A stretch of DNA of 64,000 bases from the UHGV virus genome UHGV-0294963; one strand, 5' to 3'. This document shows positions 7,320-49,471 of the stretch, one piece after another. The stretch comes from a virus. Below the pieces are notes generated by a model. That model was not told the origin of the DNA and ran no database searches. It saw only the letters and a program-made list of their open reading frames with translations. The position numbers and the translations under genes are program-made. Each line of letters begins with the position of its first letter. Within the stretch, counting starts at the first letter, position 1.

Positions 7320-9257
7320 ATGCCGAATGAATATAGTGCTGACGGTAAGATTATATTAAGAAGTACTAACGGTAATCAGATGAGTTTACCTAGATTTTTT
7401 CAGTTAGCCCTAGATGACGGTAATGGACATACTGCACATCCTATGAATGCACGGTCTGGGCACTACGCTTGGGATATGGGTACTAATAATTCTCTAACTG
7501 TACCGGTACGTACACCGTCATTTGGTACGGTAACTTCAGCCGGTGATGGTTGGAATGGCGGTATGGGTACTCATGTTATAGTTACAGATGATTCTGGTAA
7601 TGAACATAGATTTATGCACATGGTTGAAAATTCAGTGACAGTTTCAGTCGGTGATTCAGTTTCACAAGGTGATACCTTAGGATTAATCGGTAGCACGGGT
7701 GATTCTACTACTCCCCATCTGCATTATGATGTAATGAAGGATGGTTCTTTGTATACAGACCCGATAGAAGCGTATGATTGCTCGACCTTACCTTCAGGTT
7801 GGAACTTTGCAGACGCAGTTGCTGATAATCAGAATTGGGATTATATCAGATTAGACCAAGGTGCTTCAGATTACGGGCCTCCTGGCGGCTCGTCACCGAG
7901 TGAACCATATCTTCCAGACACACCTTGTTATGATATTTCCTGGGCTCAGTCTACAAGCGGTACCTTAAATGAATGTCTAGATGCAATAGCTGCCAGTAGC
8001 AGTGGTGGTGTAATTATCCAGGTAGGTGCTTTCAGAAATACTGGATTTGTACCGGAAGATAGATTTGACCCTGCACAGGCTTTAGCATATGCAATCAGTA
8101 AAAACCTAGCAGTTGGTGTGTATTTCTATAATTATGCTGATTATACTGAAAACCTAACTACAGCATTTCAAGCTGCGTTGGCTTATCTAGGTACTATCGG
8201 TGCTACCAAAGATAAATTAAAGCTAGGAGTCTGGATTGATACCGAATATAATTCTCAATTAGACTATGACCCAGTTCCTTCTTCGGACAAAGATGTCAAT
8301 TATGCGTATGTAGAGCGTTTCATGGATGTATTCGATGCAGCAGAATACCCCGTAGCGGGTGTATACAGCTCGGCTGCTTTCTTTGAGGACCATTACGGTA
8401 GTAGTCTAATTGGTAATAAACCGATATGGGCTGCTTACTGGGTTGATTCTTTCAGTGACGCTGATAGAAGTAGCTTAGATGCATATCTACCAGAAGCTGA
8501 TTACACAAAAGTCTACATAATGCAATATACAAGCAGTGCTACTGTATCAGGATGGTCAGGTAGACTTGATGGTAATAAAGTTCTAACAGCTTTACCTACT
8601 TCTGGTAGTGGTGGAGGTGGTGGCGGTGGTGAATATACAGAAGTCATCAACGTCACTGTTGATGTATCTCCTCCAAAGCGAATTTATTTTAATCCTACTC
8701 CGGGATTACTCGATGCAGCCACTGATTTGCTGAGCGACCGAAAAGCTACCATTACAGTTACTACGGATGCTGACAACGCAGACCTATACTATACCGTTGA
8801 TGGCTCTTCACCGTATCAATATACTTATGTGAACGGTAACCTCGCTTATACCGTAGCAAGCAACGCACAGCTGTATAGTTCAAGTATCACTATATATAAA
8901 GATTCACATATTCGTGTCGTAGCTGTCCCTTCTGGTACAGGTAGTTCCGGTTCATTCACAGAACCATTGGCAAAGGGCTCCGCTACATATTTGTTCAAGT
9001 ATCATAGTCTTGAACAGTCTTGGAAAGATGAGCAGAAATCTTATGCTACGTCTGACGGAGACATCTCCTTCTTTGAAGAAAACAAGCAAGCCTTTCTGCG
9101 ACTTCATGCAGAGCAGACTGAGGAGGAGATTTTATATGCAGCTGTTTATAAGCATGATACTCAGGTTGTCGAGGAAGACGCAGAAGATAGTGCAAGTGGT
9201 TCTGCTGGTACTATACCAGAAGATGAACGTGAGAACACAAGTTCGGTGGGTGATTGA
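7320..9257 (+). CDS. multidomain cell-wall hydrolase: M23 (LytM-type) metallopeptidase + GH25-like muramidase-like domain + Gly linker + C-terminal domain
   Basis: HYAWD (HxxxD) and HLH (HxH) with the Gly-rich M23 core about nt 7460-7730; DISWAQS...VIIQVGA...YFYNYAD...GVWIDTEYN resembles GH25 strands about nt 7920-8520; GSGGGGGGG linker at 8590-8630. Confidence 0.65.
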   Translation: MPNEYSADGKIILRSTNGNQMSLPRFFQLALDDGNGHTAHPMNARSGHYAWDMGTNNSLTVPVRTPSFGTVTSAGDGWNGGMGTHVIVTDDSGNEHRFMHMVENSVTVSVGDSVSQGDTLGLIGSTGDSTTPHLHYDVMKDGSLYTDPIEAYDCSTLPSGWNFADAVADNQNWDYIRLDQGASDYGPPGGSSPSEPYLPDTPCYDISWAQSTSGTLNECLDAIAASSSGGVIIQVGAFRNTGFVPEDRFDPAQALAYAISKNLAVGVYFYNYADYTENLTTAFQAALAYLGTIGATKDKLKLGVWIDTEYNSQLDYDPVPSSDKDVNYAYVERFMDVFDAAEYPVAGVYSSAAFFEDHYGSSLIGNKPIWAAYWVDSFSDADRSSLDAYLPEADYTKVYIMQYTSSATVSGWSGRLDGNKVLTALPTSGSGGGGGGGEYTEVINVTVDVSPPKRIYFNPTPGLLDAATDLLSDRKATITVTTDADNADLYYTVDGSSPYQYTYVNGNLAYTVASNAQLYSSSITIYKDSHIRVVAVPSGTGSSGSFTEPLAKGSATYLFKYHSLEQSWKDEQKSYATSDGDISFFEENKQAFLRLHAEQTEEEILYAAVYKHDTQVVEEDAEDSASGSAGTIPEDERENTSSVGD

Positions 9258-24896: not shown

Positions 24897-27104
24897 TTAA
24901 TTGAGCACTAAGAAGTGACCTGCACTGTTCTCAGCTTTGAATGCCTGAATATCAGCTACAGGCTTCCAGTCGATGAACGTACCGTCGTTTGCTAGAAGCA
25001 TTTGCATTAGAGTTTCCTTAGCGATGTCTTCAGAGTCTCCAGGAACGACAATCCCGTCAAAATTGTCTTCTGGGAGCATACACTCAGCGACAAAACCAGG
25101 GCCTTGTGCTTGAGTGTCTCTTAGGTCTTCATAACCGAGTCCATATGCAGCGAAGTCACCTTCCTCAAAAACTCGATTTGTGCCTGTATCTGCAGCTGCA
25201 GGTTCACCGACTATACCTACGCCGCCGAGTGCATTGCTGTTAAAGCTGAGTGATGAGTTAAGACCAGCAGCATCTTCTGATTTCTTCATATGTTCCTGTC
25301 TTTTCTTAAATGCTGCTTTGAGCTTGTCTAGAGCAGATGCTCCTTTGTTTGCGTCACAGCTGGTATCTGAATTAGCATGCTTAGATGCGTCTAGATTGTC
25401 TTCGTCACCGTGAAGCATATCGTAAGAAGCCGCTGCCTGCTTGATATAGTTGACAGCATCGCTGCCCTTCATTCTCTTATCCAAGCTGCCTGATTCGGTA
25501 CGGATAATGCTGTAATCCTTGAATAAGGTTACATAGACAGTTGCGTTTGCCAAGTCACCTGAGGCAATCATTTCATTATCATTGTATCCCGCAGGTGCTA
25601 CGAAAGCACCGATATCGCCGACTTTGACTTCAACGCTGGTAGTATCAGGATTCTTCTCAATTGCACGAGTAAGAGCAGCTTGGAGCGACTCGTCGGTGAG
25701 CTCATCGGTAAGCACTTCTGTAGTGTTTTCGTCAAGTGAGGCATCAAGGTCCTCCCAGTTGACATCTTTGTACTTTCTTGCGATGTACTTCTGGATGTCA
25801 GGTTTAACCTTCATCGCTTCTTTTCTTCCGATGTACTTATTGAGAAGCAGCCAGGTTACGATAGACGCATCCAGCTTATATGCTTCTTGAGGAGTGATGA
25901 GCTTCTGCTCGACCATAGGCTGAAGAAGTTTCGCATTTTTTCTGTAAGCATCGATAGGCTTAATTGTTCCTGCCTTGACGCCTTCCAGAATTGCGGCAGG
26001 GTCATCAGGAATATTCTCTGCAACGGAGTACAATCCTTTCTTAATTAGCTTATCCTTTAGTGCTGGGTCAACCTTAACAGCATAGTCAGGTGAAATATAA
26101 CCCTGTTGTACCAGCCAAAGAATCCTATCAGGAGCTCTACGTGCAACGATTTCTGGTGCAATCAAGCCCTTGGTGACAAGGTCTTTAGCAAGTGTCGGCT
26201 TAGCTTTGAGAACCTTTTCTGCATCGACATAACCCTTCGTGACCAAACGCATAACACCAGGTGTGCTCATACGGTCGAGGTCAGACTTTTTAAGTTCTGC
26301 GATGCCGTCTGCGAGGAAGTACTCATAGCAGCGAGCTGGAGGATTCTGCAGCATACTATCGACCATATCAGACAAAAGACCTGCAAGCCAGTAAGCTGTA
26401 TGCTGGTCTCTCTTGTTCGCATTGTCACCGTTTGCTGTATATCCATACATACCCTGCTCAACATCGATGAATCTTCCCGACCTATGGTAGATTAGATGAG
26501 CCTCAGAGTTAGGATTGTAGTTAGGTTCGAATGACCAATCATCTACACCGCTCTCATCAGTCTCAGCACCCACCTCAACCGTGAGTGAAGACTTGGCTAC
26601 CCACTGGGTAGTGCCGAGTTTTTGAGAAGTGTACATCAAGGTTGACAGAATTAGGTCATCACCTTTGTTCTCACGGAAGGCGGTATAACGGAATCCGGGA
26701 GGAAGGTCAACAGCTTCTTGTGCAGCTCTGAATACGTTCTTGACACGCACTGCTACACCAGGGTCAAGTGCAGAATTAAGCCCAGTGCTCTGACCTTTGA
26801 GTGAATTATAGAAAGCATCGATGCGTCTGCAGCACTCAAGATTGGTATCAAGCCAATCACCGAGGTCTTCTGCACACATATCAGGGCTTTCGATGTCATA
26901 CTGCGGAACATATGCAAATCCTTCTTCGGTAGCTTCACTATTCTCTGTCGGAGTATAAATCTCGACAGCAGTACCGTCAGGAAGATTGATTGTAAAGCCT
27001 ACCTTTGAGTCATCAATGATAGTACCTTCTGTTCTGCAGCAGTTGAGTGTTCGGGCATTTGCAATGCCCATCGTTTTGCACATTTCTGAAATAAATACGT
27101 TCAT
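24897..27104 (-). CDS. structural(?) protein with 7 tandem ~21-22-aa repeats (LVxKGxIxPxxAxKxxP)
   Basis: repeats VTKGYVDAEKVLKAKPT / LVTKGLIAPEIVARRAPDR / LVQQGYISPDYAVKVDPA / LIKKGLYSVAENIPDDPAA / VKAGTIKPIDAYRKNAKL / VEQKLITPQEAYKLDAS / LLNKYIGRKEAMKVKPD; aaggagg RBS. Confidence 0.5.
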   Translation of the reverse strand: MNVFISEMCKTMGIANARTLNCCRTEGTIIDDSKVGFTINLPDGTAVEIYTPTENSEATEEGFAYVPQYDIESPDMCAEDLGDWLDTNLECCRRIDAFYNSLKGQSTGLNSALDPGVAVRVKNVFRAAQEAVDLPPGFRYTAFRENKGDDLILSTLMYTSQKLGTTQWVAKSSLTVEVGAETDESGVDDWSFEPNYNPNSEAHLIYHRSGRFIDVEQGMYGYTANGDNANKRDQHTAYWLAGLLSDMVDSMLQNPPARCYEYFLADGIAELKKSDLDRMSTPGVMRLVTKGYVDAEKVLKAKPTLAKDLVTKGLIAPEIVARRAPDRILWLVQQGYISPDYAVKVDPALKDKLIKKGLYSVAENIPDDPAAILEGVKAGTIKPIDAYRKNAKLLQPMVEQKLITPQEAYKLDASIVTWLLLNKYIGRKEAMKVKPDIQKYIARKYKDVNWEDLDASLDENTTEVLTDELTDESLQAALTRAIEKNPDTTSVEVKVGDIGAFVAPAGYNDNEMIASGDLANATVYVTLFKDYSIIRTESGSLDKRMKGSDAVNYIKQAAASYDMLHGDEDNLDASKHANSDTSCDANKGASALDKLKAAFKKRQEHMKKSEDAAGLNSSLSFNSNALGGVGIVGEPAAADTGTNRVFEEGDFAAYGLGYEDLRDTQAQGPGFVAECMLPEDNFDGIVVPGDSEDIAKETLMQMLLANDGTFIDWKPVADIQAFKAENSAGHFLVLN

Positions 27105-27778: not shown

Positions 27779-28054
27779 TTACTTGTTCACACGCTCTTTG
27801 AGCTTGTAGCTTACCTTGAGCGCCGGTGCCTTGCTAGCATTGATGTCGATAGGCTGCTTTGTCTGAGGATTGATGCCCTTACGAGCTGCTCTCTCACGGA
27901 CTTCGAATGTACCGAAGGACTGAATGGTAACACTGTCACCCTGCTCAAGTGCTTCTGTGATTACATCGAACACACCGTCGATTGCTTTGTATGCCTGCTC
28001 ATTAGTGAAGCCTGCCTTTTCTTTGAGTTTGGAAACGAATTCCTGCTTATTCAT
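27779..28054 (-). CDS. HU/IHF-family histone-like DNA-binding protein
   Basis: FGTFEVRERAARKGINPQTKQPI..ASKAPA matches the HU beta-arm consensus ([22 protein letters not shown]), close to Bacillus HBsu; 91 aa. Confidence 0.85.
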   Translation of the reverse strand: MNKQEFVSKLKEKAGFTNEQAYKAIDGVFDVITEALEQGDSVTIQSFGTFEVRERAARKGINPQTKQPIDINASKAPALKVSYKLKERVNK

Positions 28055-32252: not shown

Positions 32253-32576
32253 TTACTCTACTTCAGGCTCGCCGCCTTCAGCAGCGCCGTCCTCAGCCAG
32301 AGTTTCGGTGTTGAGGTCGACGTCAACGGTATACTCATCACCGGACTCAGGCACGCAGTTTAGAACGATACCTGTGTCAGAAGGTGCGAGAGACACGCCG
32401 ATTGTTGGGTCAGAAGAAAGCTCTGCAAGAACAGCCTGAATAACAACTTCCATGTCTTCAATGCTGTAATATACAGTACCCTCAACCTCCTTAGAAGAAT
32501 TAAGATTAGCACCCTTACCTTTCTTGGAACTATTCAGGTCGAGTCTAAGAATTCGTCTTTTAGCATTTCTAGCCAT
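32253..32576 (-). CDS. hypothetical head protein with two LNSS motifs
   Basis: start reset to the ATG with ggaggtta RBS; LDLNSSKKGKGANLNSSKEVEG. Confidence 0.45.
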   Translation of the reverse strand: MARNAKRRILRLDLNSSKKGKGANLNSSKEVEGTVYYSIEDMEVVIQAVLAELSSDPTIGVSLAPSDTGIVLNCVPESGDEYTVDVDLNTETLAEDGAAEGGEPEVE

Positions 32577-32601
32577 AATAGATAACCTCCTATCAGTTAT
32601 A

Positions 32602-33306
32602 TTACAACACGGTTTGCGGTGTGTTGTTCTGTACCAAATATTCACGCTCTGCTCTAAGCTCTTCTAATCCCTCTGCGAGAAGTTGTTCTCCGTCGAGCTG
32701 AACAGGGCTATTCGGTAACTTGACCTTGCGTCGTTTACTACCTACATATATCTTCATGTACGCTATAGCAAGTTTGCGTAGTTGACTTTGAGCGAAACTT
32801 GTCTTTAACTCTGAAGGGTCATCATATTCAGGAATGTATGTAATAGTAACATACACCGGTTTCGGAACGTTCGCTGCTACATATAGGTATTGATTCTGCT
32901 GGTCATAGTGATATTGTAAGTCTTCCGACACTGTGTTCTTAATCTGTTGAACAAGCATCAGTTGAACGTATCTGTCGAAATATGCGTGATAAGCACCTGA
33001 GTTCGGTACGGCTGCCATTCCCGCAAGCGACGTAAAGACATTACCGACACTGGTGTTGTCTACATTCAAGCCTGCAGGAACTTCAGCACGCCGAATTGAA
33101 ATGAAATCTTTAACTTTTAGGTTACCAACCCAAATTCGCTCTTTATAAGGTACGGTTAAATCGGCGTACTCATGAAGCTTCTCTTTCAGCTCTCTAAAAG
33201 CTTTCATGAGAATCTTCATGTCGTCGCCGTCATTAACCTCTTGAGCAGTCCAAGGCACTTCAAGGTGCATATCATCCAGATATTCTTGAATTGTGGGGTT
33301 CAGCAT
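32602..33306 (-). CDS. hypothetical structural protein
   Basis: aaggagggg RBS. Confidence 0.45.
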   Translation of the reverse strand: MLNPTIQEYLDDMHLEVPWTAQEVNDGDDMKILMKAFRELKEKLHEYADLTVPYKERIWVGNLKVKDFISIRRAEVPAGLNVDNTSVGNVFTSLAGMAAVPNSGAYHAYFDRYVQLMLVQQIKNTVSEDLQYHYDQQNQYLYVAANVPKPVYVTITYIPEYDDPSELKTSFAQSQLRKLAIAYMKIYVGSKRRKVKLPNSPVQLDGEQLLAEGLEELRAEREYLVQNNTPQTVL

Positions 33307-33867: not shown

Positions 33868-35238
33868 TTAGTAAACCAGGTTGGTAACAACGCCACGGAT
33901 GAATGCCTTCGGGTTCACCATCTTCAGTGCGTTAGATGTTGCGAAGCCCTGCTGACCTGTGAATGTAGCATCCATAAGAGCAGCTGTAGCAGTAACCGGC
34001 ATATATGTACCGAATACATAAGAAGGCTCAACATCGTTAGCTGAGACGTGACCGAGGACGTACTGGTCGTGAGGAATACCACCACGGAAGCAGTAAACCT
34101 TCTTATCGCCGAGTTCGCCGGCATAGTAAGAACCAGTTGTCTTCTGAGTGTTAGCGGGTTTGAACATAGACATACCCTGGATAACAGTCATGACGCTGGA
34201 ACCAACGAGCATGAAGTTAGGACGAATACGACCTGTTGCGTCGTAGATTCTCTGAGAACCTGCGTTGATAGCTCTGATGAAGGAGTTATCATGTGCAAGG
34301 TCGCCTGCCTGTCCCTGGCCGATAGGAGGAGTAGCGCTCCAAACAACAGGTTGACCTGCTGCTGCCTTCTGCCACATATCGTGAGCAACCTTGGTGTTGA
34401 GCTCATTTACGATAGTAGACGTTGCCTGCTCCTCGAGCATCTTAGGACCATCGAGACCGTACTGCTGTTCCATATCGTAAGCAGCTGCCATGGACCAACG
34501 TGCTGCGAGAGTGTTGTCCTCTGCAACAAGGTCGAGCCATTCAAGAGTGCTGTAGATAGGGGGTGTGTTCGCAGAAGCGGAAATGTTATCAACTCTGTAA
34601 GAAGCAAGTGTAGTAGCAGCTGCTGTTACACCTGTGATAACACCGGTTGCATAGTCGATTGTACCTGCATCAACAACAGTCGAGCCATTGAGGTACTGAA
34701 TCTTACCCTCGCCGTCGTCGAAGTAGCTGTGACCAGCCTGCTCAACGATTCTAACCGTTGTAGGAACAACAGGAGCGCGGAGGAAGAGGTCAGTGAGTGG
34801 CTCGTTATTGACATCACTACCAGAGTAGTTCTCAGTGCCTCTTGCGAGCTCGAAGGGGCTTGCAGAAACCTGACCTGCCTTTACAACACCCTTATCTTCA
34901 CCGAAGTGGAAAAGAGTGTAGGGAATTGCAGTATGTCTGCTAGACATAGGCTGCATGGTGCAGAACTCAGGAATGAGCCAGTCGACAAGTGTTGCACGAA
35001 GCACGTTCATGTAGGTTGTCTTCTGGAGCACATCACCGGGCTGAGTAGCGCTCGGGATAATAGAAGTAGGAAGGAGACTCGAGTTGAGCGCTCTCTTCTG
35101 CAGGGCGTATGCGTTATTGAGAATCTTCTGAGCTTTAGAAAGCCCAATAGCGTCATACCCACGTAGTCCTTTTGCAGTACGGCTGGAATTCAGGCTCTGA
35201 ATTCCTGCCTTGCCTGCGTTTGTGTACGGCTTAAGCAT
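33868..35238 (-). CDS. putative major capsid protein (N-terminal propeptide with two LNSS motifs)
   Basis: 456-aa protein following portal and protease-position genes; Gly/Ala/Thr-rich; LNSS at residues about 16-19 and 52-55. Confidence 0.5.
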   Translation of the reverse strand: MLKPYTNAGKAGIQSLNSSRTAKGLRGYDAIGLSKAQKILNNAYALQKRALNSSLLPTSIIPSATQPGDVLQKTTYMNVLRATLVDWLIPEFCTMQPMSSRHTAIPYTLFHFGEDKGVVKAGQVSASPFELARGTENYSGSDVNNEPLTDLFLRAPVVPTTVRIVEQAGHSYFDDGEGKIQYLNGSTVVDAGTIDYATGVITGVTAAATTLASYRVDNISASANTPPIYSTLEWLDLVAEDNTLAARWSMAAAYDMEQQYGLDGPKMLEEQATSTIVNELNTKVAHDMWQKAAAGQPVVWSATPPIGQGQAGDLAHDNSFIRAINAGSQRIYDATGRIRPNFMLVGSSVMTVIQGMSMFKPANTQKTTGSYYAGELGDKKVYCFRGGIPHDQYVLGHVSANDVEPSYVFGTYMPVTATAALMDATFTGQQGFATSNALKMVNPKAFIRGVVTNLVY

Positions 35239-35252
35239 AAGTAATCTCTCCT

Positions 35253-35855
35253 TTAGCTAAAGTTTTTGAAGTGCGAATTGTATAACATCTCACACAAAGC
35301 ATTCTTACGCAACTCTGCCAGTTGACGGCTGGTATTCGTTAACCTGAGAGTGCCTTGTGGGAGGTTTCGCCTTGAGGCTGCGAGCTGAACTGGAACAGCA
35401 TATTTGAAAGCTGGTAGCGCTACAAAGTCAAACCCAAAGAAGTCAATTGGACCGGTTGTTCTACCAGGTACGGTACCTGTATCGGTACATCCATCAGCAC
35501 GAATGCTGACACCAGGCTTAATACCGTGCATATACAAGTCTTTGATATATCTGCCTTCTTCGGTTGAGTCCAGAAGCTCAATTTTGCCTTTCAGCTTGTT
35601 CCCTTCTCTGTAACAGTCGATTAGGAAACCAGCTTCAGTCTTGCGGAACCCCGGTGTGTTATCCGTAGGGTGCTCGATGTATGCAGGATAGACCCTGCGT
35701 GCGAGACAATCCTTGAAGGTTTCATTATTCAAGAGCCAATCGATTGTTGCTCCCGAAAAAGTCAAACCATCCTGATTGGGAATGTCAATGTCGAGAAAGT
35801 CACCACCTACGACAAACCTTCCGGTGCTTCTGTCTTGGGTCATTTCTGTAACCAT
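35253..35855 (-). CDS. putative prohead protease or scaffold/core protein
   Basis: only gene between portal and capsid; no clear catalytic motif seen. Confidence 0.3.
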   Translation of the reverse strand: MVTEMTQDRSTGRFVVGGDFLDIDIPNQDGLTFSGATIDWLLNNETFKDCLARRVYPAYIEHPTDNTPGFRKTEAGFLIDCYREGNKLKGKIELLDSTEEGRYIKDLYMHGIKPGVSIRADGCTDTGTVPGRTTGPIDFFGFDFVALPAFKYAVPVQLAASRRNLPQGTLRLTNTSRQLAELRKNALCEMLYNSHFKNFS

Positions 35856-37796: not shown

Positions 37797-39749
37797 TCAG
37801 TGCATTTGTGTTAATCGGTCGAAAAATGACCAATCGTCTGGATTTCTTTCGAACGCAGTTCTGTCGTAGGCTTGCAGCCCACCGAATAGGCCGTTCTTGA
37901 ACGACGAAGGCATTTTATCTTCTTTTTCGTGTGAATACATCGTAAAATCATGTAAAACCGGAGTATAAGGTAACAGACTCAAATCCCATACAGCGCCTGC
38001 CAAGCTATCCGAAATATCTTTTGAACCATTAGCAGGATGGTCTAGCTTACCTGTATGGGTATCGTATTGAAGATAAATCAATTCATTTTCTAATCTAGCG
38101 TAATGAATTAGACTAATTCTACGCTCCATCATCGATTCACGCAGAGTCTTATAACCTTCTGGTGTACGGTCGAGTGAGCGTATAGCCGTGGTGAATCCTT
38201 TATCTCGCAATATCTGATGAGACTCAGCTGTCTGGTAGGTATCGGTACTGATTATAGCAATATTAAATCCCACACTTCGTAGCCAGTACAGGAACCTTCG
38301 GTTCTTTGCCATGCTAATTTCGGTACCAGGTGGAGCCTTGATACCGACAGAGAATACCTGAGCATAAACTCGTTTTTCTATTGTTCCATCATCGGTATCT
38401 GCCAGAACATTATCTACATAGCAAGCACCCGATATACCAGTAATATCATTCTTCAATGACGTATCAAGATGTATAGCCATCGGTCTTGATTTATATTCCT
38501 TAGGTACCTTTTCTAGGTCGAAAAATTCTTGATACTCCATATGGTCGTTGCATCCTATCTCAAGTACCTCCGCTGAGAACGGATTTGGTCTATCTGTGTA
38601 GCACGAGCTGATAATCTTATAACTGAAGTAGCTGGTTGTACCCGGTAGTGCTTTACCAGCAAGGTCCTGTAATGCAGTTATGATGTTGAACCGAAAATCT
38701 GACTCTAGTTCAACCGGGACATCCAGTATCTCATATCCAAGCTGTCGTATGGCATCAAGGTCTTCTCCTTCTTCAATCACTCTAGGAGTTAGCTGTTTCG
38801 CACCGTAAGCAACCTTAAACATTTTACCAGAATATGTATCAGAGGGTTTTACAACCCACAGCGGCTCGTCGACAATGAACAGTTTATCAGCGTCGTTCTC
38901 TTTTCGGCGTTTATCTAGATACACCTCTAAGAAGTCGTCTTCTGCTTTCTTAGAAGAAACCAGGAACATCTTACCCAAGAGTTTTCCGTTCCTGATGAAA
39001 CGTGATTTAATTCTGGCTTTAACCGAAGAGTAAGTCTGCATAATCTTAGACTTCTCCATGGTTGTATTCGAACCCGGTGCGAAGTTAACCTCATCAAGGA
39101 AACCACAGAATATTTGCTGACCTAAACCGTGACTTGCTTTAGAACCAGCTTTAATAGCAATATGTTTTCCTGGTACATAATAAGGGTTAGATGCGGAACC
39201 TGCAACGGTACCATGAGACAGAAACCAAGGAGATTCCATAAGACACGCATGAAGTCGTCCGTAACCAACGCTTTGTGCCAGTGCAACCGTAGCGTTGAAG
39301 AAGAATATAGCAATTTCGTCGGTATCTGCGAATCCGAAATATCTTTGAGGGAATTTCAGACATAATAGTCGATATGTTAGGTAAGCAATGGCATAGACTG
39401 CAATCGCGGTCTTACCAATACCGATAGCCCCTGTAAACGCAATTTCTTCGTATTCGGTATCTCCACCGGCAAATATCTTGCGTAGTTGTTCTCTCCAGAA
39501 AGGGTATATCTGATTACCTAGATTAGTGGCTTTACCTAGATATTCAGGGTCTTCTAGAAACGTGTCTATATCTACCGGAATCTCTTCATAGTCTTCTAGC
39601 CAGACTTTTTCATAGGTTTCACTCTCACCTGTTTCACTGAGCTCTCTGAGTATCTGCTGCATAGTCTCTTGCTCAGAAGGAGACAATGAATTATAGATAC
39701 TTTGAAATCGTTCAGGAGCTAGCATAGTGAGATTTAGCGTACTACTCAT
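37797..39749 (-). CDS. terL: terminase large subunit
   Basis: Walker A FTGAIGIGKTAIAVYAIAY near the N-terminus; 650 aa; C-terminal nuclease-like Asp-rich region. Confidence 0.75.
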   Translation of the reverse strand: MSSTLNLTMLAPERFQSIYNSLSPSEQETMQQILRELSETGESETYEKVWLEDYEEIPVDIDTFLEDPEYLGKATNLGNQIYPFWREQLRKIFAGGDTEYEEIAFTGAIGIGKTAIAVYAIAYLTYRLLCLKFPQRYFGFADTDEIAIFFFNATVALAQSVGYGRLHACLMESPWFLSHGTVAGSASNPYYVPGKHIAIKAGSKASHGLGQQIFCGFLDEVNFAPGSNTTMEKSKIMQTYSSVKARIKSRFIRNGKLLGKMFLVSSKKAEDDFLEVYLDKRRKENDADKLFIVDEPLWVVKPSDTYSGKMFKVAYGAKQLTPRVIEEGEDLDAIRQLGYEILDVPVELESDFRFNIITALQDLAGKALPGTTSYFSYKIISSCYTDRPNPFSAEVLEIGCNDHMEYQEFFDLEKVPKEYKSRPMAIHLDTSLKNDITGISGACYVDNVLADTDDGTIEKRVYAQVFSVGIKAPPGTEISMAKNRRFLYWLRSVGFNIAIISTDTYQTAESHQILRDKGFTTAIRSLDRTPEGYKTLRESMMERRISLIHYARLENELIYLQYDTHTGKLDHPANGSKDISDSLAGAVWDLSLLPYTPVLHDFTMYSHEKEDKMPSSFKNGLFGGLQAYDRTAFERNPDDWSFFDRLTQMH

Positions 39750-39752
39750 AGC

Positions 39753-39956
39753 CTACTCTCCCTTCTTACAGCGAAACGTCTTGATTTCAGAAGTTTCGCG
39801 GTCGATGCGTACTGTAGGCATCTTCCTGCCGCGAGTGATAGTAAGGAGCAAGGAGGACTCGTTTTCAGGGTCCTCCTTAACATCCACGGTGAGCACATCC
39901 TGATAGAGAGAACGAGCAGCTTTTTCAGCTTCTTTTCGTTCTTTCTTTGAAATCAT
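39753..39956 (-). CDS. hypothetical small basic protein
   Basis: 67-aa ORF coupled to terL. Confidence 0.4.
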   Translation of the reverse strand: MISKKERKEAEKAARSLYQDVLTVDVKEDPENESSLLLTITRGRKMPTVRIDRETSEIKTFRCKKGE

Positions 39957-40240
39957 TTTGTTTCCACCTCAGGGTTCAGATAAGCATTGATATCCGCACC
40001 GATTGCGTACAAGTCAGCAACCCAGTCAAGAAGCTGCTTGGTATTGTCTTGGGACTCGCCTGATGTTTCGCTAAGCGGTGTTTCTAGTCTTGCTTCAACA
40101 GACGCAGCGAGCTGCTGAGCCTGGTCAGTAAGATTTTGGGAGATTGTGAGCAAGAGCTCACGGTCGACTCCCACCGAGCTGTTCAATTTAGTAGAAGCTG
40201 TGGGTTTCGACGTCTGTGTCTTGGGATTGTAGCGAACCAT
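39953..40240 (-). CDS. hypothetical protein (LNSS-containing)
   Basis: start reset to the ATG with aggagg RBS at 40240. Confidence 0.45.
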   Translation of the reverse strand: MVRYNPKTQTSKPTASTKLNSSVGVDRELLLTISQNLTDQAQQLAASVEARLETPLSETSGESQDNTKQLLDWVADLYAIGADINAYLNPEVETK

Positions 40241-40553
40241 AATTCTTAACCTCCTGTTCAAGTTTAGGCTGACTCTGTTCAACAGAGTCATCTTTGACAT
40301 TATCGATGTATTGGTGCATAAAGTTTTCCAACGGCTCACAGATTTTCTTGTTACCGCGGAATGTGTGGTACAAATCTTCTAGCTTGTATGTAATATTCTC
40401 ACCGGCTGCTAATGCTTTCAGACACTGACCAATCTGAACAGTTTGTGTCTGTGTTAGCAGAGTATCTACGCAAGAAAAGATACGATACAGCTCATTGTAC
40501 CAGTCTTTCGGCTTATACCGCTCCTGCGAGCAGTCCTTTGGCTCTGAGTTCAT
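40188..40553 (-). CDS. hypothetical protein; 3' end overlaps the next gene by 53 nt
   Basis: ggagg RBS at the start; unusual long out-of-frame overlap. Confidence 0.4.
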   Translation of the reverse strand: MNSEPKDCSQERYKPKDWYNELYRIFSCVDTLLTQTQTVQIGQCLKALAAGENITYKLEDLYHTFRGNKKICEPLENFMHQYIDNVKDDSVEQSQPKLEQEVKNYGSLQSQDTDVETHSFY

Positions 40554-41285: not shown

Positions 41286-41815
41286 AGTTTTGCCAACTCC
41301 TTTGCAGCATCACGAATGTTCTGACGCTCTTTAGATGTAAGTTCTGTTTGCTGAGCGTCTTCAATCGTGTCGAATATGATGGCGTCTTGAACATCAATCG
41401 GTATATCGATATTCTTAGTCGCCTGCTGTAGAGACATTAGCAGCTGCGTGTACATCGGAATGTACTGAGCGTCATGTTCTACATCAGACCGCATAAGAGC
41501 ATCGATAGCATATTCCAGCTTGTTGGTGAGTTTGTCAGTAATCCGGTTAAAGCGTAGCAGACGTAGTTCCTTATTCCGCTCTTTAAGCTGCTGGATTAGC
41601 TTCAGCCTTGTACCAGGCTGAATAGCTCTAATTGCTTCAGTGTCACTGATAAGCAAATGATATATAAGCTGATTGTTTCTTTCAACCCAAGCCTGTAGTC
41701 CTTGATAGGATTCATCTGACTTAGGTAACTCAATCGGTTGACCGGTTCCATAGTTAAAGACGTCAGCATAGTTCTTTACGGTTGCTTCGTATTTCGGATT
41801 ATTCATCGACACCAC
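41234..41815 (-). CDS. hypothetical protein
   Basis: ORF. Confidence 0.4.
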   Translation of the reverse strand: MVSMNNPKYEATVKNYADVFNYGTGQPIELPKSDESYQGLQAWVERNNQLIYHLLISDTEAIRAIQPGTRLKLIQQLKERNKELRLLRFNRITDKLTNKLEYAIDALMRSDVEHDAQYIPMYTQLLMSLQQATKNIDIPIDVQDAIIFDTIEDAQQTELTSKERQNIRDAAKELAKLCTSTSTDSQKTGAQTT

Positions 41816-42281
41816 CTACATTACCTGGATCGCACTCTGGTTCTGTATAAGAATCGGTTACGATGTCGAAACCGACACGCTTACCAGAGATTTCTGGGTT
41901 TGTGAATTCGACGTGACCGAGGCTTTTTAGTAGCTCTTCGAGTCTTTCTGCTGTCTCTTTCTTGACTGACTCTTCGAATTCGAACACAACAGACTGGTCT
42001 TTGTTGATGAATACACGAGTCATCTTGGGGATATCGCCGTGAATTCTAATGTTGTAGTACAGTGTGCGGAGCATGGTAGCGTCGAAATACGACGGATATA
42101 AAGCCTGGTGAACAGGCATAGACTCATGAAAGTTCGGGCACATACTCGAATTCAGCGAAGGTGCTTTCCCATCGAGTTGTCTAATAGTGCTTTGTGCTTT
42201 CTCGCTAAATAGCTGAATAAAAGCACCAGGGTCTACCTTGTTCTGTCTTGCACAATCAAGTCTCATAATTTTACCGAACAT
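41799..42281 (-). CDS. hypothetical protein
   Basis: ORF. Confidence 0.4.
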   Translation of the reverse strand: MFGKIMRLDCARQNKVDPGAFIQLFSEKAQSTIRQLDGKAPSLNSSMCPNFHESMPVHQALYPSYFDATMLRTLYYNIRIHGDIPKMTRVFINKDQSVVFEFEESVKKETAERLEELLKSLGHVEFTNPEISGKRVGFDIVTDSYTEPECDPGNVGGVDE

Positions 42282-45349: not shown

Positions 45350-45748
45350 TTACTGGAAGAAGTCACCAGAATCTTCACCAGCTGCAGTTTCACCCATGTC
45401 GTCGTCCCCGGATTCAGTTTCGCCGGTTCCTTCACTTTCTGATTCTTCTGCAGTTTCTTCTGTCGGTTCTTCGAATTGCTCATCGCCAATCACTTCAGGT
45501 TTTTGAGAAGTGACATCCAGCACTGCAACCTGGACAAAATCTGCAGGATACATATCAGAATCTGTAAGCTGGATTTTCTTGGATTTCGGATTATAAAGTA
45601 GAACAGCTTTCTTAAGGTCAAGCGAACTTCCGTCTTCCAATGCGATGATAGAACCTACATCTTGCATGAACTGCTCATCAACCTCACTATCATATTGACT
45701 GGGGCTAACGTTAGCAGAAGCATTAACCTTGATGCGCCTCAAAGTCAC
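45350..45748 (-). CDS. hypothetical protein with acidic C-terminal tail
   Basis: EEPTEETAEESESEGTGETESGDDDMGE. Confidence 0.45.
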   Translation of the reverse strand: MTLRRIKVNASANVSPSQYDSEVDEQFMQDVGSIIALEDGSSLDLKKAVLLYNPKSKKIQLTDSDMYPADFVQVAVLDVTSQKPEVIGDEQFEEPTEETAEESESEGTGETESGDDDMGETAAGEDSGDFFQ

Positions 45749-46101
45749 TCACCTCCTAGGTCACGAAGACCCGAATAATTATCAAGTTTATGAATTAAAG
45801 AAGCAGTCAACCTTTGATATTGATATCTACGGTTGTTTCTTATCTTTCTCCAGAAGTACTTACCTTTAGAGCCAGCTTTATATAAGCCTTTGGCTACATT
45901 CAGCGGTACGTCAAAGTAGGTATAGACAGAACCGTCTTTGAACCGAATCCAGAGCTGCTCCTTCTCAACCTTATAGACCATCCCGTCGATATTAGACGAT
46001 TGAAAGTCGGTATACATCTTTTCTTGTTCACGCTCAGCACCGGGATGATTCTTGGTGAATGGGTTAGCCTGTGATTTAACCCTGCAGTTTAGTCTTAGCA
46101 C
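45745..46101 (-). CDS. hypothetical protein
   Basis: ATGA overlap with the downstream gene. Confidence 0.45.
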   Translation of the reverse strand: MLRLNCRVKSQANPFTKNHPGAEREQEKMYTDFQSSNIDGMVYKVEKEQLWIRFKDGSVYTYFDVPLNVAKGLYKAGSKGKYFWRKIRNNRRYQYQRLTASLIHKLDNYSGLRDLGGE

Positions 46102-46774
46102 CGTTACCCCTACTTCCTGTATAATCTAGTGACTCTAGGTCACCGTAGTGTATTGTCGTTGCTTCCTCGAATGTCAGATACTTCCAGACAAAATCATACG
46201 GACGAGCTACCGACGGTATATTGCCCATATTATATATCTCGTCTTCCCAGAAGTAATCAAATGCGAATTGGTCATCTGGCGCTACATCCATCCAATGTAA
46301 GCAGCACTGTCTGATGCGTCGTTCTATCCGTTCCTTACTCTTTGGAGGTCTGGCACCTTGTACATCCGAAATGTGGTCTTGAAAATACCAAAGTACCCAT
46401 TCTGCAGCAGCTTCAAAGGTAGGATATATCTGACGTAGATTACCCCACGGTGTGTACCTACCTATAGGGCGATTTGTAATACGTCGCATCGCTTCTTTAT
46501 CTGCGTCTTTGTATATCTTCCAATGTTCATTCTTTAAGCCGAGTCTATCAGGAATAGCTGGTTCATTGCTGAAATCCCACTTCGTAACGTCGTACCTGTG
46601 AGTAAGGTCAGTTATACCTAAGAATTTCTGGCGATATACCTCATTACGAACACTGATAATGTGTCTGCGATATTTCTGATACGGAGTTAGATTAGAGAAT
46701 CTCTCTCGACTCATCCATCTAAGTTTCCACCGTATCTTATCCTTCTGAAGTGAATTCTGCATTAAGGGTTGCAT
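46076..46774 (-). CDS. hypothetical protein
   Basis: TAATG overlap with the upstream gene. Confidence 0.45.
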   Translation of the reverse strand: MQPLMQNSLQKDKIRWKLRWMSRERFSNLTPYQKYRRHIISVRNEVYRQKFLGITDLTHRYDVTKWDFSNEPAIPDRLGLKNEHWKIYKDADKEAMRRITNRPIGRYTPWGNLRQIYPTFEAAAEWVLWYFQDHISDVQGARPPKSKERIERRIRQCCLHWMDVAPDDQFAFDYFWEDEIYNMGNIPSVARPYDFVWKYLTFEEATTIHYGDLESLDYTGSRGNGAKTKLQG

Positions 46775-47097
46775 TAGCCTTCCTCCTTAAGGTCCTTACC
46801 AGGAATATGGTTGAGCTTCCGTCTATAACCATAAGCAGATTTGGTATCATCACAACCGTAGACTGCAAATTGAATTCTCTTGTATATGCTTTCGTCCTTC
46901 GCCTTTGTCTTTGTGTGGGATTTTACCCACTCGACAGCGTCCCACATATCGTGATATGTCTGCTTGACAACGCCGTCTTCTAGACGTTGAACGTGATACT
47001 CTAGAGTACCTTCAGAAATACGCTCTTTAGCGTCTTCTGTGTGTTCATGATGGGCGAAGGTGGAGTTGAGAGAATTCTTAATAGGAATCCTTATCAT
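46774..47097 (-). CDS. hypothetical protein
   Basis: start reset to the ATG with aggtggag RBS (the longest ORF ran into the upstream gene). Confidence 0.4.
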   Translation of the reverse strand: MIRIPIKNSLNSTFAHHEHTEDAKERISEGTLEYHVQRLEDGVVKQTYHDMWDAVEWVKSHTKTKAKDESIYKRIQFAVYGCDDTKSAYGYRRKLNHIPGKDLKEEG

Positions 47098-47116
47098 ACA
47101 GCTCCACCTGCCTTTC

Positions 47117-49471
47117 TTATTGTTCCGGGAATCTGAATTTGATATCCTTGTCGATTGCCGCTTTGCATTCATCAATTGTCTTGTAGATGTGTGGTGAGAA
47201 CTTACCATAAGGACTTACTGCAATATACCCTCCTGACTTCTCACCGCCGGTGATGAGATAATCCTTGTATCTCATAGCACCATCGTCGACGATACTATCA
47301 TCCAGGTCTACCTCAGAACTGTTCAGAGAATCATTATCAACTACAACAGCGAAGCCGTCTTCGAGAGGCTTTATACCAGAAAGCTGGATGCCGAACTCTG
47401 CAGCAATTGGCTCGATTTCGGTTGGCTCCATTCCACGAATGATAATCTTATAGCCTGAGCCTTCACCTTCCGTAGTAGGCACGGTGCTTACCTGCTTTGC
47501 TCCTTCTTTGATTTTCTCGACGAACAATTTTAATGCAGGATTGTCGTGTACCGAGCTATTCAGTTCAGACTTTCTAGAAGAATCCATCTTGACTTCGTCG
47601 TTCATGTCGCAGACGGTAGTCCAGATGCAACCAGGATACTCGACTTCAAATTGTTCTTGAATTGCTTCGTATAAATCCATGCCCTCAAGATTGTCACTGA
47701 CTGTAATTACTGCCGGCTTCTCAATTTCATTGCCGTTCTCGTCCTCGTAGTACACCTGAAATTGTTTCTTAGGCTTGTTCACGTCAGCAGTACTCGGTTC
47801 GATTGAGCTATCTACACTCTGCTTTGTTGGAGTAACGTCACCTTCATGAGCGTCGAAAGAATCCCAGCCGTTCTGTACCAGTGTGGTCACGACGTGCTCT
47901 ATGATATCATCTGCTTCTGATGCTTGCTCGTCAGAGCCGTCAAAGCCAATGCGAATCGTAGTCGAATCTGGTCGAGCAACCTGCTGAATAGTGATATCCA
48001 GATTTTTATCTCTCAATTCGTTCTCGATAATATTCTTAAGGTCGGACACTCTTTCCTGAGTGCGAGCGAAGTCCTGGGGAACCGTTACCTCACTGATAGC
48101 ACAATTAAGAGAGCTGTCGATATCATCGAAATCCTCGGAGTCGAGAGGGTCATCATCTCCGAGGATAACGCGCATAATTTCGTCAACAATTAGCAAGTCT
48201 TCAGCGGCCTGTATAATGTCTACAAGAGCTTCATGCTCATCGACGCTTGCCAATAGCTCCTTTAGTGAACCTTCTACGTCGCCGAACATCTTTTCCTTGA
48301 TTTGGTCATCGTAGTTAAGGTCTTCGATAGCCTCTACAATACCAACCAACATTTCATGTTCATCGACCTCTGCCGCAGCTTCCTTCAGCGAATTGGCGGA
48401 TTCACAGTTCAGTTCATTCTTTTTTTTAGATGAGTCGAGGCTTTCATCACCTTCGCATACGCAGGGTTCCTGGCCGCACTCGGGGCAGACAGCATCAGTC
48501 GGAAGAGCTGCTTGAGCAGCATCAGCAATTACGACAAAACCTTCAGGAATTTCGTCGTCCTCTGTTTCCTTGACGAAGAGTGCGAGCTCATTGGTATCAG
48601 GATTCTGAACAATCTTGATATCGTCGAGTGCAACCTCATTGCCAGACTCAGTGGTAATCATTGCAACTTCCTCAGAACCTTCACCGACAACATCTCCGCC
48701 ATCAGTGTTTCCTTCAGGTTCTTCTGAAGAGTTCAGCGTAGTACTTCCTGTGGTCTTGTTAGTCCCTTTAGCAGAGTCGAGCTCCTCGGTTGCAGATTCC
48801 CAGTCGACAGATTTGGTTACATCTGATGATTCTACTGCCTGGCGTGCCTTCTCTGCGTCTGCATCCGGGCAGTCGATTTTTACCTTAACGTCGGTATTGT
48901 TAACCTTCTCGAAGTCAACCTTAGCACCAGGAACAGCTTTCTCGATTCTGCTTCTGAGCAGACGCTCTGTAGTATCATTATCAAGGTCGGCAAAATCATT
49001 ATAGATAGTCACTGTGCCTAAAACCTTGGTGGAACCAACTTCGCAGTTAAGACTAGAATCAGCATTTGTCTTGTCGCAGGAGCCATTCATGTCATCCTTT
49101 GTGTACCACTTACCGTCTGTACGATACCAGAGCTGTTCTTTACCGTCCTTGACAGCCCAGAAATCACCGTCCAAACCTGCCTCTTCAGGAGATGCAAGAC
49201 GAACAACCTGAGCGCCAGTCTCATTCTCGAAAGCTTCGAGATATTTCTTTGCTTCTTCTTCGCTAAGCCAATGACAGAGCTCCTGAAGTACAGATTCTCT
49301 TGAGCAGTTGAGCTTACGAATAGTTGCTAGACTTACGCTTGCGATAGCAGAAGTTCTACTCCTCGAACTATTTAGCTCTGTGTTGCGAGGGCGACGCTGC
49401 TTTGTCGTAGACTGAGTCTGAGTCTGAGTCTGAGCATTTGTCTTTGCAACCGGTTTAGTTACATTTACCAT
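47117..49471 (-). CDS. large acidic protein with internal duplications and 8 LN[SC]x motifs: candidate processed internal head/scaffold-like protein
   Basis: 784 aa; duplicated segment EAAAEVDEHEMLVGIVEAIEDL / ELLASVDEHEALVDIIQAAEDL; TELNSS, KLNCS, SSLNCE, TTLNSS, NELNCE, SSLNCA, SELNSS, DSLNSS; aaaggag RBS. Confidence 0.5.
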   Translation of the reverse strand: MVNVTKPVAKTNAQTQTQTQSTTKQRRPRNTELNSSRSRTSAIASVSLATIRKLNCSRESVLQELCHWLSEEEAKKYLEAFENETGAQVVRLASPEEAGLDGDFWAVKDGKEQLWYRTDGKWYTKDDMNGSCDKTNADSSLNCEVGSTKVLGTVTIYNDFADLDNDTTERLLRSRIEKAVPGAKVDFEKVNNTDVKVKIDCPDADAEKARQAVESSDVTKSVDWESATEELDSAKGTNKTTGSTTLNSSEEPEGNTDGGDVVGEGSEEVAMITTESGNEVALDDIKIVQNPDTNELALFVKETEDDEIPEGFVVIADAAQAALPTDAVCPECGQEPCVCEGDESLDSSKKKNELNCESANSLKEAAAEVDEHEMLVGIVEAIEDLNYDDQIKEKMFGDVEGSLKELLASVDEHEALVDIIQAAEDLLIVDEIMRVILGDDDPLDSEDFDDIDSSLNCAISEVTVPQDFARTQERVSDLKNIIENELRDKNLDITIQQVARPDSTTIRIGFDGSDEQASEADDIIEHVVTTLVQNGWDSFDAHEGDVTPTKQSVDSSIEPSTADVNKPKKQFQVYYEDENGNEIEKPAVITVSDNLEGMDLYEAIQEQFEVEYPGCIWTTVCDMNDEVKMDSSRKSELNSSVHDNPALKLFVEKIKEGAKQVSTVPTTEGEGSGYKIIIRGMEPTEIEPIAAEFGIQLSGIKPLEDGFAVVVDNDSLNSSEVDLDDSIVDDGAMRYKDYLITGGEKSGGYIAVSPYGKFSPHIYKTIDECKAAIDKDIKFRFPEQ

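Follow-up and report, generated by a model that had tools for sequence, protein, structure and literature searches.

Recurrent L-N-[S/C/A]-x sites in the virion proteins of an uncultured phage: a probable signal for its prohead protease

Why should one tetrapeptide recur in the virion proteins of a single phage? In the virus genome UHGV-0294963, of which a stretch of 64,000 nucleotides was analysed (the window, to which all coordinates without a locus name refer), the sequence Leu-Asn-Ser-Ser (LNSS) is found in the major capsid protein, in several small proteins and repeatedly in an acidic protein of 784 amino acids (aa) encoded at 47117..49471 on the minus strand. The initial annotation had read this motif as a cleavage site of the prohead protease. 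We consider it quite probable that the prohead protease of this phage, the product of 35253-35855, recognises and cleaves L-N-[S/C/A]-x, with Ser preferred at the fourth position. All computational tests that were run, covering conservation, recurrence, protease fold, position of the gp23 cut and linker location, agree with this reading.

The window was translated as 89 non-overlapping open reading frames (ORFs) comprising 20,077 aa in total. LNSS occurs 11 times in these translations, compared to 0.34 expected by composition. When each protein was shuffled (2,000 trials), LNSS appeared 0.37 times on average and at most 4 times, and in an unbiased ranking of tetrapeptides LNSS is the most over-represented one in the window (Poisson ~1e-13). 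The earlier count of about 10 against fewer than one expected was therefore slightly low; all sites listed at that time are present, but the list missed LNSS at residue 43 of the 41799-42281 product, LNST in the 46774-47208 product as well as LNCC 20 and LNSA 109 in a 735-aa protein. The proposed form LN[SC]x is enriched but too narrow, as LNAS occurs in relatives and the motif is better written L-N-[S/C/A]-x. Because 11 of the 14 NSS tripeptides of the window have Leu in front, this residue belongs to the signal. The LNSS codons vary from site to site, with serine codons of both the AGY and the TCN family in use, as had been stated initially. The signal therefore resides at the protein level and not in the DNA, and a DNA-level repeat as source of LNSS was rejected on the same grounds.

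All 11 copies of LNSS lie inside the minus-strand virion block 24897-49471 (7,713 aa), compared to none in the other 12,364 aa of the window (Fisher p = 2.7e-5). According to Pfam and PHROGs scans, the products of this block include a capsid protein of the T4 gp23 family, a T4 gp20-type portal, the large terminase, the tail sheath, the tail tube and a gp13-like neck protein. The plus-strand products, among them an exonuclease, SbcCD, a DNA polymerase, an M23-peptidase/lysin protein and several proteins of unassigned function, do not contain the motif. The restriction to virion genes is thus clear; the narrower statement that all sites fall into the head and packaging genes is less certain, as the 735-aa protein is encoded in the tail module.

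A megablast search with the 17-kb head region found no match among 50,697 phage records, and there is no cultured close relative in that collection. Dozens of metagenomic relatives of the capsid protein were found, on contigs of up to ~160 kb, and in a search of 1.84 billion representative proteins the capsid family of the window formed a single cluster at 50% identity. The nearest cultured phages by capsid (~30% identity) are the Bacillus phages SP-15 and HSE3 and the Listeria phage LIS04. The enrichment recurs in the related loci: LNSS is the top tetrapeptide of L001, and both LNAS and LNSS are among the top three of L003. An equal frequency in non-structural proteins of relatives was not observed, as LN[SAC]S is missing from the early genes that occupy ~10 kb ahead of the polyprotein gene in both L010 and L011.

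The major capsid protein (456 aa; 33868..35238, minus strand; Pfam Gp23, 3.5e-23) carries two sites, LNSS at residues 16-19 (35182..35193, minus strand) and LNSS at residues 51-54 (35077..35088, minus strand), the second being the predicted maturation cleavage site. In relatives of 70-98% identity the capsid N-terminus is variable, yet both sites stay LNSS or LNAS, the first as SLN[S/A]SR and the second as KRALN[S/A]SLLP, which is invariant in the family. Moreover, lineage-specific insertions in the capsid N-terminus bring extra copies of LNSS or LNAS with them. Comparison of the capsid family profile with T4 gp23 structures (E = 2e-24) pairs G68 of the window protein with residue 21 of mature gp23*, and the T4 cut therefore falls at about window residue 48. 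The second site lies within ~6 residues of the aligned T4 gp23 cut E65|A66. From the sequence, a propeptide of ~53 residues with a mature N-terminus at about Ser54 is predicted, and the initial estimate of ~55 lost residues is reasonable in this light (53-55).

Which enzyme could act on these sites? The gene at 35253..35855 (minus strand), located between the portal and capsid genes and already named as the candidate, encodes a 200-aa serine protease of the gp21/assemblin fold, as indicated by fold, hhalign and invariant His, Ser and Asp residues. The candidate catalytic residues His62 (35661-35663 region), Ser117 and Asp143 are invariant in 26 homologues and pair with the DHP, GISSR and FDFV motifs of S77-annotated proteases (hhalign, E = 3e-12). 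Profile-profile comparison with the Peptidase_S77 domains of SP-15-like phages reached 97.6% probability with alignment of the EHP, GVSIR and FDFV motifs, and PHROG_207 matches the protein at 2e-8. For the third catalytic residue, the counterpart in the alignment is the Asp of S77 proteases and not the second His of assemblin. The homology to gp21 is detectable only by fold search and profile-profile comparison; phmmer and profile searches against PDB sequences gave chance matches only.

All characterised proteases of the gp21 type (T4, phiKZ, 201phi2-1, SPN3US) cut after Glu at φ/A/S/G-x-E, where φ denotes a hydrophobic residue, and their substrates often carry several sites per propeptide. 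T4 gp21 (MEROPS S77) acts on the gp23 propeptide, the scaffold gp22 and the internal proteins IPI-III with their capsid-targeting sequence. The parallel to T4 gp21 that was drawn initially holds for the mechanism but not for the residue at the position of the T4 Glu, which is small here: judged from the aligned motifs, Ser, Cys or Ala would take the place of Glu, with Asn fixed one position before. As in phiKZ and SPN3US (S80), many head proteins possess N-terminal propeptides with several copies of the motif. In contrast, those phages cut at A/S/G-x-E, and their substrates are separate gene products with no cassette polyprotein.

More distant capsid proteins show where this difference might have arisen. 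The next relatives (~150, with ~25-38% identity) mostly carry φ-x-E directly before a conserved (A/S/T)TQ, and 30 of 46 have Glu there, whereas such a site before (A/S/T)TQ is absent from the capsid protein of the window. Since most of these distant capsids carry φ-x-E, the change to a small residue is specific to the lineage. In a MAFFT alignment, I/V-N-E of distant capsids pairs with L-N-S at the first site, and the protease-scaffold protein of L007 contains five LNE, compared to ~1.5 expected in the whole locus. The simplest reading of these alignments is that Leu at P3 and Asn at P2 were kept while P1 shifted from Glu to a small residue. L005, a lineage of 36% identity, supports this reading: its head block is rich in I-R-S-[S/G/A] and [I/V]-N-S-S, with one site just before the capsid ATQP. 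In L005 5766-11437 IRS is the most enriched tripeptide (9 against 1.7 expected), and I-R-S-[S/G/A] occurs in five head-block proteins. This suggests drift of the preferred P2 residue between lineages, with retention of the small residue. The protease of L005 forms the N-terminus of a 554-aa protein to which a scaffold-like region is fused, with sites clustered near the C-terminus; a 275-aa gene upstream of the L005 capsid gene was considered as the protease and rejected (hhalign probability 0.1%).

The motif also resembles the substrates of the herpesvirus proteases. The protease of human cytomegalovirus cuts VVNA|SSRL, and sites of pseudorabies virus are YLQA|T and VQA|S; L-N-[A/S/C]-S-(R/K) seems similar to the rule (V/L/I)-(N/Q/K)-A|S. 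Assemblin (MEROPS S21) acts on maturational and release sites, and L-N-(A/S)-S-R of the window is close to V-N-A|S-S-R. In other respects the two systems differ, as the match of the window protease to gp21 is far closer and just ~40 residues follow its putative release site. The latter is an invariant L-A-A-S at residues 158-161 (35373..35384, minus strand; L158, A160 and S161 invariant), in the disordered linker between the protease domain and a C-terminal helix. Residues 149-174 have a predicted local distance difference test score (pLDDT) below 50 and are followed by the helix 175-195. In the L005 fusion, AIAASK follows the protease domain, so that I-A-A-S stands ahead of the scaffold part. 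Based on this arrangement, L-A-A-S is a plausible candidate for an autocleavage or self-release site. Such self-release would parallel the R-site of herpesviruses and the C-terminal autocleavage of the phiKZ and SPN3US proteases.

Judging by the sites of related phages (φ-x-E|) and of herpesviruses ((V/L)-N-A|S), we lean towards a cut after the third motif residue, with Leu at P3, Asn at P2, Ser, Cys or Ala at P1 and Ser at P1'. The same protease could instead cut after Asn (L-N|S/C/A), with Asn at P1 and a small residue at P1', which would leave the overall model as it is. No polar residue of the motif other than Asn is fully invariant, and the tolerance of S, C or A at the third position is typical of P1' preferences; in addition, relatives recognise an acidic P1, and Asn is chemically nearer to Asp or Glu than Ser is. 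We nevertheless regard this cut as rather unlikely, as the four-residue match of L-N-A-S-R to V-N-A|S-S-R places the scissile bond past the third residue, the φ-N-E sites of phages such as L007 put N at P2 and E at P1, and the occurrence of I-R-S-[S/G/A] beside [I/V]-N-S-S in L005 shows Asn to be replaceable while the small residue stays.

The pair of Asn and a following Ser or Cys raises a further question, namely whether a protease is needed at all. Asn cyclisation or an N-to-O/S acyl shift, as at the C-termini of inteins and in some capsid autoproteolysis, would use exactly this chemistry, and 91% of the LN dipeptides in the polyprotein family (502 of 552 in 71 homologues) are followed by Ser or Cys. 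Self-cleavage is excluded for the LNAS sites in the capsids of many relatives, as Ala is no nucleophile; furthermore, the sites lie in predicted disordered linkers and not in a fold able to catalyse, and a conserved dedicated protease gene adjoins the capsid gene. We therefore hold a protease-independent reaction to be very improbable and continue with cleavage by the prohead protease.

The 784-aa protein is the richest carrier of the motif. It is acidic (isoelectric point 4.24), with a conserved leader of ~55 aa followed by ~7 folded cassettes, and contains eight LN[SC]x sites. Two of these, LNSS 33 and LNCS 54 (49301..49375, minus strand), lie in the leader. The other six, which were checked by translation and span 47315..49051 on the minus strand, are positioned between the cassettes: LNCE 141 (49040-49051), LNSS 246 (48725-48736), LNCE 354 (48401-48412), LNCA 455 (48098-48109), LNSS 637 (47552-47563) and LNSS 716 (47315-47326). 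An AlphaFold2 model of the protein shows folded α/β modules of 70-110 residues between segments with pLDDT below 50, and seven of the eight sites fall into these low-confidence linkers (binomial p = 0.005). The model is consistent with the initial view of a multiply cleaved protein, with predicted cuts between modules.

LNSS, LNCS, LNAS and LNST all contain N-x-S/T, and Ser or Thr occupies the fourth position in ~67% of the non-redundant sites of the polyprotein family. The motif might thus be taken for an N-glycosylation sequon on virion proteins in place of a cleavage site. In about a third of the family sites, however, E, A, D or K is found at the fourth position (LNCE, LNCA, LNSE, LNSD, LNCK). 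A sequon requires neither the Leu that precedes 11 of the 14 NSS tripeptides nor a restriction of x to S, C and A. In addition, the sites are concentrated in N-terminal leaders and in linkers between domains, and they match the maturation point of gp23 in position; no glycosyltransferase was found among the proteins scanned. Glycosylation is for these reasons highly unlikely, and proteolytic processing remains the preferred explanation of the sites.

For the analysis of the cassettes, every homologue was cut at LN[SC] and the resulting pieces were clustered. The leader appears as two short conserved segments (~55 residues), after which cassettes are inserted, deleted and swapped in many orders, with alternative C-terminal cassettes of, for example, 171, 116 or 54 residues. 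In the 17 homologues (43-100% identity) the leader is invariant at R26, R27, P28, R29, N30, L33, N34, S35, S36, L54 and N55, and it is the sole part common to the most distant homologues. A conserved leader ending at a motif site (RRPRN.ELNSS ... LNCS) is thus followed by variable, recombining cassettes. Homology breakpoints are enriched ~2-fold near LN[SC] sites compared to random positions. In L011 (10001-12705 of a 160-kb contig) the polyprotein is encoded by two adjacent genes of 468 aa and 411 aa, with LN[SC] sites in each. No recognisable function was assigned to the cassettes by Pfam, PHROGs or Foldseek against viral structures, and the Foldseek search with the polyprotein model gave nothing at E <= 0.001. 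Pfam and PHROGs likewise returned no family for the 784-aa protein or for the 735-aa, 130-aa and 128-aa proteins described below.

Some cassettes and linkers look duplicated (cluster A is present twice, and DSS-LNC linkers recur), and copies of an ancestral leader or linker segment could enrich the motif even if it had no present function. Such an origin would hardly account for a motif that seven or more unrelated proteins carry, in different codons and between dissimilar flanks, that is invariant while the surrounding residues diverge, and of which new copies arise in lineage-specific insertions. The probability of shared ancestry as the whole explanation is in our view minimal, and a functional cleavage signal is retained.

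The remaining carriers are also encoded on the minus strand. A small acidic protein of 107-130 aa with a basic N-terminal leader (32253..32645) has LNSS at residues 37 and 48 of the 130-aa ORF, ~14 and 25 residues from the 107-aa start (32526-32537 and 32493-32504), and LNCV at 32352-32363; its L001 ortholog retains KENLNSSKE and LNCV. In the 128-aa ORF at 39953..40339, LNSS is located at residue 52, ~19 residues from an internal Met (40175-40186), and K(T/N)(K/N)LNSSV is kept in the orthologs of L001, L003 and L011. The 160-aa protein of 41799..42281 carries its LNSS (residue 43) at 42144-42155, with PRKLNASSA in L003 and QASLNSSVC in L010. Directly downstream of the polyprotein gene, a small protein (46774..47208) has LNST ~10 residues from its likely start (47059-47070), which is kept at residues 12-13 in L010 and L011. 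The 735-aa protein (24897..27104), encoded behind the tail tube gene, at the position of the tape measure in SP-15-like phages, contains LNCC 20 (27036-27047), LNSA 109 (26769-26780) and LNSS 615 (25251-25262). Its sites are kept in L001, and the equivalent L003 genes hold three LNSS. Either it belongs to the internal or ejected proteins, or processing at this motif extends to a protein of the tail. Paired-Cys motifs after hydrophobic-N/E were also seen in this protein, with LNCC at residue 20 and LECC at ~residue 89, and the L001 ortholog has LNCC and INCC at matching places. A 118-aa protein (45745-46101, minus strand), whose orthologs have a KTSC domain, starts with M-L-R-L-N-C, and MLRLNC or MLKLNC is found in L010 and L011. 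The start is possibly a very brief leader that terminates in a motif site; alternatively, the resemblance is accidental.

Several points weigh against the motif as a signal of the prohead protease. The phage is known only from metagenomes, and this reading of the motif is a purely computational prediction. In the polyprotein, site 716 lies 4 residues outside a linker, no LN[SC] site is present in the low-confidence linker 541-567, and the enrichment of breakpoints is a mere ~2-fold. The third position is not accounted for by a simple rule of a small P1, as Ala is common only in capsids, and Cys, absent from the capsid sites, almost equals Ser in frequency at those of the polyprotein. The location of the 735-aa protein in the tail module is beyond the expected reach of a protease confined to the prohead. 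In comparison to T4, the protease is too divergent for Pfam Peptidase_S77 (PF03420; no match at E <= 0.01), and between the protease and capsid genes of the window no scaffold gene is evident.

From the observations described above we infer that the sites are cleaved, which bond is cut, that this protease is the agent and that the products are packaged. After assembly of the procapsid, the protease would strip ~53 residues from the capsid protein, also cutting at ~18 within the propeptide, and would trim short basic N-terminal leaders off several small head proteins. The 784-aa polyprotein would be cut at the leader and at each inter-module linker. About seven small, folded, acidic products would thereby be set free and would remain in the head, perhaps to be delivered into the host; the ~55-residue leader would serve as a capsid-targeting sequence. 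In T4, the internal proteins are a diverse cargo that counters host defences, and their common part is the cleavable capsid-targeting sequence. The 784-aa family is similar in its conserved leader with variable cargo behind; the candidates are, however, concatenated in one polyprotein, where T4 uses separate genes.

Some further features of the window and of related loci were noted. The large terminase of the window (650 aa, 37797-39749) is uninterrupted, unlike the copies of L002 (4202-7495), split around Intein_splicing and GIY-YIG homing-endonuclease ORFs, and of L005 (29-2983), a 984-aa version containing an intein. Between the tail sheath and tail tube genes sits a 91-aa gene (27779-28054, minus strand), the product of which has an L001 ortholog with Pfam Bac_DNA_binding (HU/IHF-like), an odd location for a histone-like DNA-binding protein. 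On the plus strand, a 174-aa ORF (582-1106) has six Cys in a row at residues 152-157, which explains an enrichment of CCC. In the 645-aa protein of 7320-9257 (plus strand), an M23-type metallopeptidase region (~35-150) is followed by an endolysin-like one (~230-575); the protein is probably a tail-associated cell-wall lysin.

The reading of the motif as a cleavage signal is well supported by sequence, predicted structure and comparison, and two features of wider interest appear to be new: a putative herpesvirus-like specificity in a protease of the gp21 type, and a cassette polyprotein of probable head-internal proteins. No earlier report of the motif, of a non-Glu specificity in gp21-type proteases or of such a cassette polyprotein was found in the literature. 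Taken together, they lead to a more tentative proposal, which is possible but on balance doubtful: a gp21-type protease re-tuned from Glu to hydrophobic-Asn-small|Ser would act on a plug-and-play payload polyprotein with a capsid-targeting leader and interchangeable cassettes. Cleavage inside the head would yield its ~seven acidic proteins, which would enter the host along with the DNA, for instance for counter-defence, and the cassettes would be swapped at the linkers that hold the cleavage sites. If true, the P1 specificity of the old S77/S80 enzyme family can change. The site rule common to herpesviruses could be an ancestral trait of the assemblin/gp21 lineage rather than convergence, and a rule so near to that of assemblin offers a concrete way to ask if phage and herpesvirus maturation share substrate recognition besides the fold. 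For this widespread group of uncultured phages of ~150-160 kb, the motif lets the boundaries of mature proteins be predicted from sequence. It also flags the hypervariable cassette polyprotein as a likely source of packaged, possibly injected proteins, the T4 counterparts of which neutralise host defences.

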